A stretch of 64,000 nt of DNA. Source: an uncultured candidatus Porisulfidus sp. (lineage in GTDB: Bacteria; Pseudomonadota; Gammaproteobacteria; Poriferisulfidales; Oxydemutatoraceae). The DNA lies in contig OZ244052.1 of assembly GCA_965215125.1 (NCBI GenBank), forward strand, positions 288,001 to 352,000. Reading direction: 5' to 3'. The position numbers and the translations under genes were made by a program. The stretch's first letter is position 1; each line of letters starts with the position of its first letter. Below, in pieces: positions 8,514-14,020 of this stretch. The notes under the pieces were generated by a model. The model worked only from the letters and a program-made list of their open reading frames with translations, had not been told where the DNA came from and did no database searches.

Positions 8514-9956
8514 TTGCCGACAATGACTATAGAATTAACAAAAGATTGGATCAAAAACTTAAAAACAGAGAAGGCTTATAACCTTTCGAGTCTCTTTTTG
8601 GACAATACCAAACCCAGAGAAGTTCTTTTTATATTGCAAAACCTAGGGCATCTGTCTACTAATTTCGACGATAGTTGTATCTTGCCTTTGGTAACCGATA
8701 AAAACCAGAAGATCCGTCTTTGGTCAATTAAAACATTAGGCAAAACCAAAAAAATAAAAAACCTACATGTGTTAGAAAAAGTAGCATATCGGGATACATC
8801 AACCGAGGTTAGAAGAGAAGCAATTTCCTCTATCGGTAGAATCAAGGATAAAGTGATTATTCCTACTCTAATCAAATTTCTTAACGACGATGATCCTAAA
8901 ATTGTTTTGCAAGCAATTAGAGGGCTTCTAACTTTTAGGACAGAACCTAAAGTCTGCCATGTACTTAAGAAATGTGCAACACATCCCAATGAAACGGTAC
9001 AGAAAGTCATTAAAAAAGAGTTTTTATCGGAAAATAAAACAATACCTAGAGAACAAAACCACCCTCAATCTTATCCTTTCTTAAAAAATGTGGTCGTGTT
9101 GGGCGATGTGAGAAAGACATTGAAGTATGTACCCGATGAGAGTTTTCATCTCACTTTTACATCGCCACCATACTATAACGCGAGAGATTACTCTATCTAC
9201 AAAAGTTATCGTGAGTACTTAGATTTTCTGAAAGAGGTTTTTTCCCTAACTTATAACAAAACCAAAGAAGGTCGTTTTCTAATAGTCAATACATCACCAA
9301 TTATTATTCCTAGAGTAAGCCGTCGGTATTCCAGCAAGCGATACCCCATACCCTTTGATATTCATAATTTTTTAGTGCCGATGGGTTGGGATTTCATAGA
9401 CGATATCGTCTGGGTGAAACCTGAATCCAGCGTCAAAAATAGAAATGCAGGCTTTTTACAGCATAGAAAACCACTTGCATATAAACCGAATACCGTAACC
9501 GAATATCTAATGGTCTATAGAAAAAAAAGCGATAAATTAATAGACTGGAATATCCACCAATACGACTCGAATACCGTTAACGATAGTAAAGTCAAAGATG
9601 GTTATGAAACATCCAATGTGTGGGAAATTGACCCCAAACATAACAAAATTCATTCGGCAGTTTTCCCCGACAGTTTATGCAAACGAGTCATAGAATATTA
9701 TTCCTTCAAAAATGATTTAGTGTTTGACCCGTTCGCCGGAAGCGGCACTTTCGGCAGAGTGGCTAAGTGCCTTAATAGATTTTTTTTCCTTACCGAAAAA
9801 GAATCCAAGTATTTCAATTATATAAAAGCCTCTTTTTCTAAAGAGGGCACTTTGTTTGAGAAAGAAGAAAAGAGAAACTCCTTTCTATGTCTGGATGAAT
9901 TTGGGACTGTTGAAAAAGTGCTGGCATCGCAAAAATCCAACCGCTATGCGCTGTGA
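8514..9956 (+). CDS. HEAT-repeat + beta-class (probably N4-cytosine) DNA methyltransferase fusion
   Basis: N-terminal HEAT-like repeats (IRLWSIKTLGK, EVRREAISSIGRI, DDDPKIVLQAIRGL). Motif IV FTSPPYY precedes motif I DPFAGSGT. Confidence 0.85.
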   Translation: MPTMTIELTKDWIKNLKTEKAYNLSSLFLDNTKPREVLFILQNLGHLSTNFDDSCILPLVTDKNQKIRLWSIKTLGKTKKIKNLHVLEKVAYRDTSTEVRREAISSIGRIKDKVIIPTLIKFLNDDDPKIVLQAIRGLLTFRTEPKVCHVLKKCATHPNETVQKVIKKEFLSENKTIPREQNHPQSYPFLKNVVVLGDVRKTLKYVPDESFHLTFTSPPYYNARDYSIYKSYREYLDFLKEVFSLTYNKTKEGRFLIVNTSPIIIPRVSRRYSSKRYPIPFDIHNFLVPMGWDFIDDIVWVKPESSVKNRNAGFLQHRKPLAYKPNTVTEYLMVYRKKSDKLIDWNIHQYDSNTVNDSKVKDGYETSNVWEIDPKHNKIHSAVFPDSLCKRVIEYYSFKNDLVFDPFAGSGTFGRVAKCLNRFFFLTEKESKYFNYIKASFSKEGTLFEKEEKRNSFLCLDEFGTVEKVLASQKSNRYAL

Positions 9957-10354
9957 ATATTTATAAACCGCCGTAGGGGCGGACTGGCATGATGCCTTAT
10001 TAAAAATCAAGCCGTTTTATTCATTTTTTATCTCCTTTTGTGAGTATCGATTTAGGACGCAAATGCTCAACAATAATTCGTGTCAAACGGTTGCTTGTGC
10101 GTGGTGACCCCATAAATAATACGCGTGAGCTTATGAGCGCAAGCAACAATAATCTGCTTTTTAGTTAACTCCGGACGCCGCCGACTTAATTGGTCGGCAA
10201 ATGCACGGATGGTTAGGTTATGCCGACGTGCCGAGAGTGCTGCCATAAATAGGAGGGTGCGCAGGTCGGCATTGCCCTGTTTAGAGATGGGCGTGGGCGA
10301 TGCGCAGTTGCCGGATTGCTTGTGCTTGGGCGTGATGCCGATATAGGCGGCGAG

Positions 10355-11495
10355 TGTACAATGCCAGATACATATTGGACTCTTTAGAACCTAATCTTTC
10401 CACTAGGAAAAGTACTTTTCCTAGTGGAAAAATACCTCTTAAATCAAAGTAGCCGACATGCAAAACCAGCACATCGGCTACCGCATTACAGGTTTTTATA
10501 AAATAGCCTCTTTTTCCAACAAAACGGAGGCTATGATGGCAACAGATGCCAAACAAAAACTTAATGCATTAGAATTTTGGAACAAACACGGCTTAAACGC
10601 AACCCAAGACTTTGTCGGGGTGAGCCGTTCCACCCTATACCGCTGGAAAAAGTGCTTTGACGAGGGCGGTGTATCCGCTTTGCGAGACGCAAGTAAAGCA
10701 CCTCGGCAGCATCGTCGCCGTAATTGGTCTACTCACATCAGCGATGAGATTAGGCGACTGCGACACAGCTATCCGAATATGGGTGCGCCGAAGATTTATT
10801 ACTTCTTAAAGCCGTGGTGTGATGCACGCGAACTGCAGTGTCCGAAGCCGCGCACCATTGCACGGTTGATTGCCGATGCATCCGACAACATGCGCTGTTC
10901 GCCCCCTAAACTCTCTAAAAGAAAACACAAATGCAAGACTTCTCAACCACGCAACCGTCTCAGCAAAGATGCCAAAGCGCAATTTCCCGGACACTGCGTG
11001 GCTATGGATACTATCCATTATTTCGTTAATCGAACACGCTATTATCTGTTCACTGCGATTGACCACTACAGCCGTTTTGCCGTTGCCATTACCTGCCGAC
11101 GCGCCCACAGTAAAAATGCTGCGACATTCGCAAGATTGGTGGACACGGTATTCCCCGGCAACCTCTCTCAAGTACTGACCGACAACGGGAGCGAGTTTGC
11201 CGGCGACTTCGAGGCTTATCTACAACGACACAACATTAAACACTGTTATACTTATCCTCGTTGCCCGAAAATGAATGCCATAGACGAGAGATTTAACCGT
11301 ACCATTCAGGAGGAGTTTGTAGCACATCATGAGGATATTTTAGTGACCGATTTAGCACAATTTAACGACGTATTATTTGAGTATCTCGGGCGGTATAACT
11401 TCAGGAGACCGCACCAAAGTCTAGCCTATAAAACACCGGCACAACAGCTTGCTTCCTTTTGTCCCCATTTGTCCAATATGTCATGGCATCGTACA
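10355..11495 (+). mobile_element. IS481-family insertion sequence (1141 bp)
   Basis: Imperfect IRs TGTACAATGCCAGATACATATTGGAC / TGTACGATGCCATGACATATTGGAC. 5-bp TSD GCGAG at 10350-10354 and 11496-11500. Confidence 0.88.
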
Positions 11496-11561
11496 GCGAG
11501 TTGCTTTGGATGGCGAAACGTATTATCATCCAGTACTGCACACAGGGCAGCCGCAGTTTGA
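10458..11561 (+). CDS. IS481-family DDE transposase (HTH + rve integrase core)
   Basis: GVSRSTLYRW; VAMDT; LTDNGSEF; IDERFNRTIQEEF; YNFRRPHQSL. The frame reads through the right IR into IS110 DNA. Confidence 0.9.
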   Translation: MQNQHIGYRITGFYKIASFSNKTEAMMATDAKQKLNALEFWNKHGLNATQDFVGVSRSTLYRWKKCFDEGGVSALRDASKAPRQHRRRNWSTHISDEIRRLRHSYPNMGAPKIYYFLKPWCDARELQCPKPRTIARLIADASDNMRCSPPKLSKRKHKCKTSQPRNRLSKDAKAQFPGHCVAMDTIHYFVNRTRYYLFTAIDHYSRFAVAITCRRAHSKNAATFARLVDTVFPGNLSQVLTDNGSEFAGDFEAYLQRHNIKHCYTYPRCPKMNAIDERFNRTIQEEFVAHHEDILVTDLAQFNDVLFEYLGRYNFRRPHQSLAYKTPAQQLASFCPHLSNMSWHRTASCFGWRNVLSSSTAHRAAAV

Positions 11562-12244
11562 GTTCCGATTCCAGGAATGGAACACAGCAACTGGTGAAGC
11601 TGTGTGAGGTGCTCGTCTTGAGCGATGATTTTGTCCATTGAGGCATTAATCTTATCGATCTGCTTCTCATGGTTCTTCAGGCTAGTGGCTGCCACCTTTT
11701 TTTGCTTCGCATCGCGCAGGGTATTAGCGCAATTGCTTAACATCGTACAACACTTGACTAATTCCCTGCGCCATTTCAGTGCGTCGCGCAAAGCTTGCAC
11801 AGCCGGTGAGGGCTTTTGCCAATTGTTTTCAGGCGGGATAGCAAATACGAAGCGTGCGATGATACGCGCATCCACGCGATCGGTTTTACTGCGTATGCCG
11901 AGCGAGTCGCGGAATCTAGCGATCAGCACCGGTGCTGCCACGATGATTGGATGCCCGGCATCATAGCCGGCCATGCACAGGTCTAGTTCAAGACCGCCGG
12001 TCGCCTCAACACAGATGCGACACTGCTGTGCGCGGTGTTTGCTCGTCCAAGCTAACAACTGTTTGATGCCTTGGGCATCACTACTAAATTGTTGCTCGGC
12101 AAAACTATTATCAGTGAATAATAGAGCCGCCTCTAAAGTGTCTTTAGAGACATCAACGCCAATCGTGACGGGTTGTTTGTTTTCCATAATAAATTACTCC
12201 ATAAGGGTTGGTTAATGAATGAAATACTAGGTATCAAACACAGT

Positions 12245-12425
12245 TTAGGAAAGTATGACTACGCCGCCCAAACAGATGAATACGAGATCTAAAGTCCCAA
12301 GCTGCCTTTCGAGCTCTATAGTCATAACGCCGGAGGAGTGCTTTTCATACCATCAGGCTTTAATGCCTCGTCCGTCCTGCAGCGTGTCTCCTCCGACTTC
12401 CTAGGCACTGCATCTGCCTAAGCGT
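12245..12425 (-). ncRNA. IS110 bridge RNA (predicted)
   Basis: Three elements on the minus strand: 5' hairpin taggca/tgccta, target-binding loop closed by gtcggaggag/ctcctccggc, donor-binding loop closed by tatgacta/tagtcata. Loop sequences match the target and donor junctions. Ends approximate. Confidence 0.8.
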
Positions 12426-12489
12426 TTATCTTATATCAAATAAGCCAGGGTTTAATATATCTGTCCGCCCTAAAGTTCCGTTCTGCACA

Positions 12490-12812
12490 GCCGTAACCGC
12501 TTGCGCCGTATGGTTTTGGTTTCCATAAATCGGGTGGATGAATGTATAAATCTTGCAGATACGACACAACCACCCCGTCAGGCTGCGCCTGCCACCCCTC
12601 CGAAGGAGGGGAATGTACCGTTCCTACAGTTCGTGGATACTTTTTCAACAGTCCCACGCAGCAACCACTCCATGGAAAGGCTTTACATTTTGTACTATGT
12701 ATCAAAGTTCTGCACAATGTCACGCCGTTTGTGCTACTGCAACAAACGGCGGTTCTATCGCGCCTGCCACCCCTCCACAGGAGGGGAATAATACTCTTTA
12801 AACAGTCCCAAT
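12490..12812. repeat. Dispersed modular repeat cluster
   Basis: Inverse copy of the 8140-8290 modules (caaccaccccgtcaggctgcgcctgccacccctccgaaggaggggaatgtacc), plus ggaaaggctttacattttgta and cccctccacaggaggggaa. Confidence 0.75.
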
Positions 12813-12928
12813 TTAAGAACACCCTTAAAGAATGACACTAAGCGAACGTATTGAAAAAATATTTAACGAGATATTCGTTAATTAAACATAAGCTGTTAAT
12901 CGGAAGAATTGCCGTAAAATAATCTCTT

Positions 12929-14020
12929 ATGGAGATGGATGCGCTTGCCGATAGAATTAAACGATGGGGAATAGAACTCGGCTTTTCCGATGTCGGTTTC
13001 GCCAATACCGAATTGCACGGTTATGAACTCAAGCTACTGGAGTGGTTGAACGATGGAATGCACGGTGAGATGCATTTTATGGAAAAACACGGCAACAAGC
13101 GCAGTAGACCCGAAAAATTAATCGACGGTACCGTTAGCATCATATCGGTGCGCATGAATTATCTCGATAAGGATGCTACGGATGCAGATACGGTATTAAA
13201 GCAACCCGAAAAAGCGTATATTTCCCGCTATGCCTTGGGGCGCGATTACCACAAATTGATACGCAAAAGATTGCAGCGGCTCGCCGATAAAATTACCCAG
13301 GCGATCGGACCTTTTGCATACCGCGCATTCAGCGATAGCGCGCCGGTATTGGAGAAGCCGCTTGCCGAACAAGCCGCACTCGGTTGGATCGGCAAGCACA
13401 CGCTATTGCTCGATCGCTCTGCCGGTTCGTGGTTTTTCTTAGGGGAGCTGTATACGAATTTGGCACTCCCACCGTCTACCCCGACGACGAATCACTGCGG
13501 GAGCTGTGAACGTTGCATGGATATATGCCCGACTCGAGCTATCGTTGCACCCTATAAACTGGATGCACGACGTTGCATCGCTTATTTAACGATAGAACTT
13601 AAGGGTTCTATCCCGGTAGAGTTGCGTCCTCTGATGGGCAATCGCATATTCGGCTGCGACGATTGTCAACTGGTTTGCCCGTGGAACCGTTATGTGCGCT
13701 ATTCCACCGAAGAAAAATTTCGCACACTACATAATCTGGATTCGGCAGATTTGATAGAACTATTTTCATGGAACGAACAAATGTTTTGCGACAGATTGGC
13801 GGGGTCGGTCATTAAACGTAGCGGTTATGAAAGTTGGCTCAGGAATATCGCAGTGGCACTCGGCAATGCACCCGGTAGCGATGAAGTTATACGAGCTTTG
13901 AAGACACGCCTGCACCATCCTTCCGAAATCGTTCGTGAGCATGTACGATGGGGCATCGCACAACATACTCGGAATACCGATACTAAGTGTTCCCCTCGCG
14001 CCACGCCAGATATTTATTAA
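12929..14020 (+). CDS. queG: Epoxyqueuosine reductase
   Basis: ISRYALGRDYH, DSAPVLEK, CGSCERCMDICPT, GCDDCQLVCPWN. Confidence 0.95.
   Translation: MEMDALADRIKRWGIELGFSDVGFANTELHGYELKLLEWLNDGMHGEMHFMEKHGNKRSRPEKLIDGTVSIISVRMNYLDKDATDADTVLKQPEKAYISRYALGRDYHKLIRKRLQRLADKITQAIGPFAYRAFSDSAPVLEKPLAEQAALGWIGKHTLLLDRSAGSWFFLGELYTNLALPPSTPTTNHCGSCERCMDICPTRAIVAPYKLDARRCIAYLTIELKGSIPVELRPLMGNRIFGCDDCQLVCPWNRYVRYSTEEKFRTLHNLDSADLIELFSWNEQMFCDRLAGSVIKRSGYESWLRNIAVALGNAPGSDEVIRALKTRLHHPSEIVREHVRWGIAQHTRNTDTKCSPRATPDIY

Follow-up and report, generated by a model that had tools for sequence, protein, structure and literature searches.

Among insertion sequences (ISs) of the IS110 group, IS621 of Escherichia coli carries a recombinase with DEDD and serine catalytic residues together with a bridge RNA (Durrant et al. 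2024, PMC11208160; Hiraizumi et al. 2024, PMC11208158). This RNA is encoded in a long left end and comprises a 5′ stem-loop, a target-binding loop and a donor-binding loop. Its left guides pair with the bottom strand and its right guides with the top strand, the left donor guide (LDG) covers eight positions of which position 7 tolerates a mismatch, the right donor guide (RDG) is split, with AU upstream, and the core is 2 nt long (CT) in a repetitive extragenic palindromic (REP) target. Bridge RNAs have been predicted in 85.7% of IS110-group elements, and REP elements are known IS110 targets (PMC11208160). ISPpu10 of Pseudomonas putida is likewise an IS110 element with a bridge RNA that targets one REP family, also at a CT core, with natural wobbles and mismatches in the left guide and a stricter right guide (10.64898/2026.03.19.712850). 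ISCro4/IS622 of Citrobacter rodentium (PDB 9t56) has a 14-nt layout with handshake guides and a CT core, and has been tested in human cells (10.1101/2025.05.14.653916). The IS1111 group, with its seekRNAs, shares the recombinase family and an RNA matching both target strands (Siddiquee et al. 2024, PMC11187229), but carries that RNA downstream of the gene in a long right end, with reversed guide order and subterminal repeats of 7–17 bp (PMC11187229, PMC11208160). Here we describe an IS110-group element in a 64,000-nt stretch of DNA (the window: positions 288,001 to 352,000 of the forward strand of contig OZ244052.1, assembly GCA_965215125.1) from an uncultured candidatus Porisulfidus sp., which a first-pass annotation, made from the sequence alone, had read as carrying a bridge RNA with a CA core programmed against the genome's own REP-like hairpin.

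The element lies on the minus strand of the window, comprises 1,324 bp of its own sequence within the loop of a REP-like hairpin (Table 1), and very probably moves by bridge-RNA-guided recombination in the manner of IS621. The case for a bridge RNA is carried by comparative evidence: all nine copies in the genome share the site, and in relatives the guides vary in step with the sites. Read on the minus strand, the element has the left junction ...GGGCGGA-CA|GATATATT (in a longer reading, ...TTTAGGGCGGA-CA|GATATATTAAAC) and the right junction ...AAGGCAT|CA-TGCCAGTCCGCCCC (...TTTTTAATAAGGCAT|CA-TGCCAGTCCGCCCCTAC), so that the empty site is GGGCGGA-CA-TGCCA. Joining the flanks yields GGGCGGAC-ATGCCA-GTCCGCCC, a hairpin with an 8-bp stem in which CA lies at the border between left arm and loop; these junction sequences agree with the empty target GGGCGGA-CA-TGCCA that had been read from the letters. 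The non-coding ends measure 274 bp on the left, upstream of the gene, and 75 bp on the right, the long-left/short-right layout of the IS110 group, and bear a 6-bp subterminal inverted repeat (TTTAAT at 9999–10004, ATTAAA at 12451–12456). Assignment to the IS1111 group was considered and rejected: the RNA lies upstream of the gene, the right end is 75 bp long and the repeat 6 bp, as against the right-end RNA and 7–17 bp repeats of that group.

Table 1. Coordinates of the features discussed, in window positions unless the source genome (G000) is named
Feature	Coordinates	Strand	Remarks
Whole IS110-group element	9992..12461	-	1,324 bp plus 1,146 bp from the IS481-like insertion including its 6-bp duplication; boundaries from nine genome copies and the intact 1,324-bp copies
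Left CA core copy	12462..12463	-	
Right CA core copy	9990..9991	-	
Left target half (LT), GGGCGGA	12464..12470	-	Left arm of the REP-like hairpin
Right target half (RT)	9976..9989	-	TGCCA (hairpin loop) 9985-9989; right arm GTCCGCCCC 9976-9984
Right non-coding end	9992..10066	-	75 bp, terminating in the left donor half AAGGCAT
-10-like hexamer TATATT, left end	12454..12459	-	Consensus match only
-35-like hexamer TTGATT, right end	10005..10010	-	Consensus match only; 17 nt upstream of the -10 only after the ends join in a circle
Predicted bridge RNA gene	12250..12426	-	5′ stem-loop, target-binding loop, donor-binding loop; model R2 match of 177 bits (G000 300250-300426), fold, homology to the IS621 RNA
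5′ stem-loop of the predicted bridge RNA	12400..12422	-	
Target-binding loop module	12329..12397	-	10-bp outer stem, internal loop, inner hairpin AGGC/GCCU
Left target guide (LTG), GGACGGACG	12369..12377	-	Pairs with the bottom strand of GGGCGGA-CA; aligns with IS621 A50-U58
Right target guide (RTG), UGGUAUG	12346..12352	-	7 nt; pairs with the top strand of CA-TGCCA; aligns with IS621 positions 74-80
Putative handshake guide, AA	12344..12345	-	Placed by alignment to IS621 A81/U82
Donor-binding loop module	12254..12326	-	9-bp outer stem, 5-bp second stem, internal loop, inner hairpin
LDG, AAGGCAGC	12301..12308	-	7/8 match to the right-end terminus AAGGCAT-C, mismatch at position 7; aligns with IS621 A123-C130
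RDG, AUCUG	12273..12277	-	Complementary 5/5 to CA-GAT at the left-end start; aligns with IS621 positions 161-165
Recombinase, N-terminal 231 codons	11495..12187	-	Identical to the intact copy; holds D12, E61, D103, D106
Recombinase, C-terminal part	10067..10354	-	Catalytic Ser243; stop codon 10067-10069
IS481-like element	10356..11495		1,140 bp; rve-type transposase reading frame on the + strand, 10458-11561; 6-bp duplications ACTCGC 11496-11501 and 10350-10355
Intact copy, 1,324 bp	G000 603046-604369	+	
Intact copy, 1,324 bp	G000 989584-990907	-	

Comparison with the rest of the source genome (one contig, 2.22 Mb) revealed eight full copies and one degenerate copy, every one of them in the REP-like hairpin; insertion at unrelated sites, which the first-pass annotation had named as grounds for refutation, was thus not observed. 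Beside the two intact copies, these are the window copy, a second interrupted copy, three B variants (~80% identical overall), a chimera (C) and an internally deleted copy (D), to which several left-end fragments are added. In all nine two-ended copies the left flank is GGGC[G/A]GA-CA and the right flank CA-T[G/A][C/T][C/A/T]A, the wider surroundings differing from copy to copy; the core CA, single in empty sites, is found at both junctions of all nine. The right hairpin arm follows the copy in eight of the nine, the degenerate copy D being the one that lacks it. A-type copies (those of the window type) have a right target guide unlike that of the B variants, and their sites accord with this difference, reading TGCCA in 3/4 A copies and TGCAA in 2/3 B copies. 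Unoccupied hairpins exist in this genome: a hairpin search gave 82 matches over both strands, with variable loops and with each palindromic site able to count twice, and 52 sites (both strands) lie within two mismatches of the 14-mer GGGCGGA-CA-TGCCA.

The recombinase encoded by the intact copies (324 aa), whose gene lies at G000 603320-604294 in the copy on the + strand, is assigned to the group by several profiles. It contains the Pfam domains PF01548 and PF02371 and passes the NCBIfam model NF033542, ‘IS110 family RNA-guided transposase’, at 216 bits against a cut-off of 140. Residues 8–321 align with the structures of IS621 (8wt6, E 2e-43) and ISCro4 (9t56, E 1.2e-44, the best match to a solved structure), and in the end-to-end alignment with the 326-aa IS621 protein, at 33% identity, D12, E61, D103, D106, S243 and G244 stand at the positions of the IS621 catalytic residues D11, E60, D102, D105 and S241, with G242 (Hiraizumi et al. 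2024, PMC11208158). A protein homology search of ENA assemblies returned ~19 homologous proteins at 46–90% identity. Beyond the genus, a scan of metagenome contigs for a close clade found only proteins of ≤38% identity, and a scan of genome contigs returned the three sister genomes described below and then proteins of ≤37%.

The left end contains the four guide-like motifs that the first-pass annotation had listed, each where it had been placed on the minus strand (AGGACGGAC at 12370–12378; TGGTATG, AAGGCAGC and ATCTG at the RTG, LDG and RDG coordinates of Table 1). Folding recovered a 5′ stem-loop followed by two stems with large internal loops that bear these motifs, the shape that had been anticipated. 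In the target-binding loop, the left target guide (LTG) pairs with its site through seven Watson-Crick pairs, one A.C mismatch and one G.T wobble, and the right target guide (RTG) through six Watson-Crick pairs and one G.U wobble. For the putative handshake guides, which would lie 3′ of the RTG and RDG and each pair with position 7 of the opposite substrate, pairing is possible between the first A and donor T7 and between U and target A7; the v8 variant of genome G035 has G opposite G, so that the pattern does not hold in every variant. In the donor-binding loop, an AU upstream of the RDG matches A157-U158 of IS621 and can pair with donor positions 13–14. When the left end was dinucleotide-shuffled 20,000 times, 12 of the shuffled sequences contained all four guide-like matches in their proper order.

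To place this RNA relative to described ones, a covariance model (R1) was built from an alignment of the genus and run on 100 distant IS110 loci of ≤38% protein identity, where it gave 12 matches at E ≤ 1; 11 of these run along the gene strand and stop immediately before the recombinase gene. A set of 22 further distant loci gave nothing at E ≤ 0.05. Across nine distant and six clade sequences, in an alignment that is fitted to the model and includes a doubtful minus-strand match (L177), 35 of the 44 base pairs had changed on both sides with 96% of cells pairing, a level that 0/500 shuffles reached; controls with slid alignments stayed at or below 0.111, compared to 0.551. R1 alone scored 6.3 bits on IS621 (E 0.76). 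After one iteration, in which the model was rebuilt from seven distant matches without the L177 locus (R2), the full model matched the left end of IS621 in all four intact copies of E. coli W, whose genes are annotated ‘IS110-like element IS621 family transposase’ (34.2 bits, E 2.2e-7). This match begins at published position 1 and reproduces the published numbering exactly, giving the IS621 segments as LTG A50-U58 = AUCGGGCCU, RTG G77-G80 = GUAG, LDG A123-C130 = ACAGUAUC, RDG A157-U158 = AU with C162-G165 = CAAG, and, as handshake guides, AU and GU. When aligned by the model, these IS621 segments fall opposite the guides proposed here, the 7-nt RTG spanning IS621 positions 74–80, which comprise the IS621 guide and the segment by which it is lengthened in engineered versions. 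Within the source genome R2 detects eight full RNA genes and one degenerate one, and no other family. Rfam 15, run in E-value mode on window 9500–13000, held no curated model that fits the left-end RNA and gave three chance-level unrelated matches.

Guides and sites were then compared across the genus, four other genomes of which were searched, three of them (G034, G035 and G036) containing relatives at 60–97% protein identity. The pairing set comprised 33 copies from four genomes (eight from the source genome, seven from G036, 15 of the 17 matches in G035 and three from G034), with copy D excluded for its deleted first loop. The RTG pairs with core and right target at 7/7 positions in 30 copies and at 6/7 in three, the RDG at 5/5 in all 33, the LDG at 7/8 in 30 copies and 8/8 in three, and the LTG at 8/9 in 15, 7/9 in one and 6/9 in 17. 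Four RTGs track four hairpin loops (UGGUAUG with CATGCCA, UUGCAUG with CATGCAA, UAGCAUG with CATGCTA and UAACAUG with CATGTTA); the RDG tracks the start of the left end (AUCUG with CA-GAT, ACCUG with CA-GGT), and the LTG tracks the hairpin arm (..CGGAC. with GGGCGGA-C, ..GAGGGC. with GAGAGGG-C). These changes stand out from a conserved background: mean column identity among 12 distinct left-end variants is 94–95%, compared to 60–70% identity of the proteins, the stems are nearly invariant, and the variable columns cluster in four short blocks, which are the proposed guides. The bridge-RNA reading made at the outset is thus upheld by the protein family match, the covariance-model match to the IS621 RNA and the covariation of guides and sites in 33 copies.

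By homology with IS621, the element would excise as a circle in which the joined ends place the −35 of the right end 17 nt upstream of the −10 of the left end, and an RNA of ~177 nt would be transcribed from the left end. In the first loop of this RNA, the left guide would bind the hairpin arm (bottom strand of GGGCGGA-CA) and the 7-nt right guide the hairpin loop (top strand of CA-TGCCA), so that between them they would specify both the arm and the loop of the REP-like hairpin, of which this genome has dozens of copies, while the second loop would bind the joined ends of the element, AAGGCAT-CA-GAT(AT). A recombinase tetramer would then hold circle junction and hairpin and exchange strands at CA. 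Because the arms read alike on both strands, the loop and the second core base would decide the orientation, a logic that fits the long, strictly matched RTG and the looser left guide. Hairpin arms are indeed palindromic, sites reading GGGCGGAC on both strands with the opposite strand offering CT (for example, GGGCGGA-CT-TGCAT); the CA orientation is the one used by all copies seen.

Several observations weigh against this model or narrow the ground on which it stands. It is on the strength of its homologues that the element is credited with transcribing the RNA, forming a circle, catalysing exchange at CA and being mobilised in trans. The promoter formed at the junction (TTGATT-17 nt-TATATT, assembled in silico from genome slices) scores 9/12 by consensus, with TTGACT in the B variant, and a −35 derived from the flank of one integrated copy scores as high. 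The predicted fold is unremarkable in single-sequence energy (z = -1.60; 18 of 200 shuffles fold as well or better). Within the genus, base-pair covariation is near absent since the stems hardly vary, with compensatory change in one of 44 base pairs, equalled by 38–46 of 500 shuffles. The structural covariation from farther afield draws on low-scoring distant matches in an alignment that leans to the structure of the model; one of the 12 R1 matches, L177 on the minus strand, overlaps another match and is probably spurious. As for the guides, the A.C mismatch opposite LT position 3 is fixed in all variants that target GGGCGGA, and LTGs of the G034/G035 type pair at only 6/9 positions. Of the 5,040 ways of assigning sites to the seven guide classes, 8 attained the observed number of Watson-Crick pairs for the RTG, 144 for the LTG and 144 for the RDG, the lowest counts possible given tied classes; since the guide classes are related by descent, these counts overstate independence and do not represent probabilities. 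Finally, the CA core proposed from the letters stands, CA being present at both junctions of 9/9 copies, yet neither left guide forms a canonical pair with the second core base: the LTG ends in G (a G.T wobble) or, in the B variant, in A, and the LDG has U opposite T. On the donor side this agrees with IS621, whose LDG likewise covers only positions 1–8.

The window copy is itself interrupted, as had been noted from the letters, by an IS481-like insertion (Table 1). Its recombinase reading frame, entering at 12187, is identical to the intact gene over 231 codons before it passes into foreign DNA, and the final 95 codons, including the catalytic serine, restart at 10354. As the insertion lies between the RuvC-like domain and the catalytic serine, the window copy cannot make the recombinase; it retains both ends and the RNA gene undamaged, and it could be moved by the recombinase of the two intact copies. 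Restoring the gene by deleting the IS481-like element, as the first-pass annotation had suggested, is unnecessary given these two copies. The inserted transposase has rve and helix-turn-helix domains, its best NCBIfam model being NF033577 at 192.4 bits, under the cut-off of 224, and the element has ends TGTAC...GTAC(A) and a 6-bp duplication in nine of nine full copies. As a side observation, its transposase frame contains no stop within the element, which ends at codon 346, and continues for 21 codons into IS110 DNA, so that its C-terminal tail is set by the insertion site.

A second interrupted copy (G000 763828-766298) has its insert at the same position and in the same orientation, with the same ACTCGC duplication. 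The simplest reading is that the composite has moved as a unit, maybe by means of recombinase from intact copies. That the two composites instead arose by independent insertions, or by gene conversion between IS110 copies, and never moved as a unit is a live alternative to which we give appreciable weight while leaning away from it. The IS481-like element does reuse some sites (the duplication ATCCAT occurs at two unrelated loci), dispersed near-identical IS copies are substrates for gene conversion, and the chimeric elements described below show that recombination between copies does happen. Nevertheless, the two composites share position, orientation and duplication, their inserts are 100% identical and the composites as wholes differ at two bases in 2,471, while the seven other full IS481-like copies use six other duplications. 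Each composite occupies a different REP site with correct CA junctions, and a left end-cargo-right end construct of ISPpu10 is reported to have been moved in trans by experiment (10.64898/2026.03.19.712850).

A second alternative accepts the bridge-RNA family as genuine and holds that it is no longer mobile in this genome, its copies being relics of older activity or products of homologous recombination or gene conversion. We consider this improbable. Many degenerate left-end fragments and one deleted copy could be relics of this sort, two of the four A-type copies are broken, and just one exact A-type 14-mer is left unoccupied in the genome. To these may be added, as a weak point because contigs drop rare forms, that no contig from four sequencing runs (contigs only) links the right end to the left end; joints that skip the element do occur in the run contigs, with 19–28 letters on the shorter side, and look like other, empty REP copies. 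Set against this, the intact copies, though at unrelated loci, show 100% identity over 1,325 bp and keep open 324-aa frames with all catalytic residues, and there are three B-type copies, of which B1 and B2 match the query over residues 1–324 and B3 over residues 49–324. The identity of the intact copies, which the window copy matches at 100% in both of its pieces, suggests recent activity. Scarcely credible, finally, is an account in which the recombinase protein itself recognises hairpin and ends, with the left end serving as a leader or promoter and its resemblance to the site incidental or owed to a captured REP: individual guide-like matches are common by chance in shuffled sequence when wobbles and one mismatch are permitted, the fold is thermodynamically unexceptional, the LTG looks like the same strand of the target, as would be expected of a captured fragment, and the REP stem-loop contributes to recognition by ISPpu10 (10.64898/2026.03.19.712850), but the RTG is the reverse complement of its site rather than a copy of it and tracks four loop sequences, the RDG tracks a switch between A and G in the second base of the left end, homology to the bridge RNA of IS621 places the guides of the two RNAs in register, and IS621 needs its RNA in vitro (PMC11208160).

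Since REP targeting and the RNA architecture have already been described, this system, with its probable bridge-RNA-guided recombination of the IS621 kind, is a further member of a class of elements reported since 2024. Its main departure from IS621, ISCro4/IS622 and ISPpu10, as far as their accounts go, is the CA core. It differs from IS621 also in the second core base, which the left guides do not meet with a Watson-Crick pair, in a natural RTG of 7 nt as opposed to 4 nt in the wild type, in a subterminal repeat of 6 bp (TTTAAT/ATTAAA) as opposed to the 2–3 bp of the IS110 group (PMC11208160), and in its insertion at the stem-loop border of a hairpin. In ISPpu10 the stem-loop is a GC-rich 5′ extension of the target, whereas here the target spans left arm and loop. 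ISCro4/IS622, which shares the 14-nt layout, with handshake guides that are putative in the present element, is distant in sequence.

The published IS621 core changes altered the first base only (PMC11208160), and CT:GT have been used as orthogonal cores, at lower efficiency (10.64898/2026.04.29.721476); when CT systems are given AT, GT or TT as an engineered second core, the T is kept and efficiency drops. In the accessible literature we found no statement on natural non-CT cores, the supplementary catalogues, which possibly list CA cores, lying outside this search. A natural CA core accompanied by a long natural RTG would be a reasonable candidate to test, and if efficient it would provide an orthogonal partner to CT-core editing systems. 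We advance only tentatively, and regard as doubtful, the bolder proposal of a natural CA-core bridge system in which Watson-Crick recognition of the second core base is left to the right guides alone, recombinases of only 60–70% identity can use one another's RNA scaffold, as natural chimeras indicate, and broken copies with an IS as cargo are moved in trans. The four same-genus genomes also form a small natural experiment, in which guides and sites shift together on a scaffold 94–95% identical, the behaviour that defines a bridge RNA. Apart from its core, the element is an ordinary mobile element of an uncultured bacterium.

Some copies combine parts of different types. The chimera C (G000 C1:1998248-1999578) has the left end and RNA of the A type (99.6%) but the gene and right end of the B type (97%), and L049 in G036 is mixed in the reverse sense, with a v7-type left end before an A-type gene (97%); judged by these sequences, RNA modules seem to be exchanged between recombinases about 68% identical. 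Left-end fragments of ~45–75 nt stand directly before a full copy, upstream of the gene, at L024 (G034) and L032 (G035), and the source genome contains left-end fragments at C1:521878-521933 and C1:2109565-2109617, of the class found directly before a full copy or a right hairpin half. Most such fragments stop at a CA inside the left end. Their appearance is that of recombination between partly matching sites, and they resemble the partial-match products of a 2026 preprint (10.64898/2026.08.14.744561). A relic of a third left-end type, 77% identical, lies at G000 C1:670310-670417, with different sequence at the guide positions and the left flank ...AGAAGAG-CA.

Farther afield, a distant IS110 element of a Rhodopila sp. 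metagenome-assembled genome (14 fetched copies: L082-L094, L096) has CTA at both junctions and otherwise varied flanks. In the source genome the REP-like hairpin often lies within longer repeated blocks, seen at window 12464–12800 and in the flanks of other copies: in one, ...CCACCCCGTCAGGC...GCCTGCCACCCTAA directly precedes the hairpin, another begins ...ATACGGCGCAAGCGGTTACGGCTGTGCAGAACGG, and CCCCTCC/GGAGGGG hairpins occur nearby. The element is adjoined by an open reading frame of 480 aa (window 8514–9956, + strand) with an SPPY motif, which is typical of N4/N6 DNA methyltransferases.

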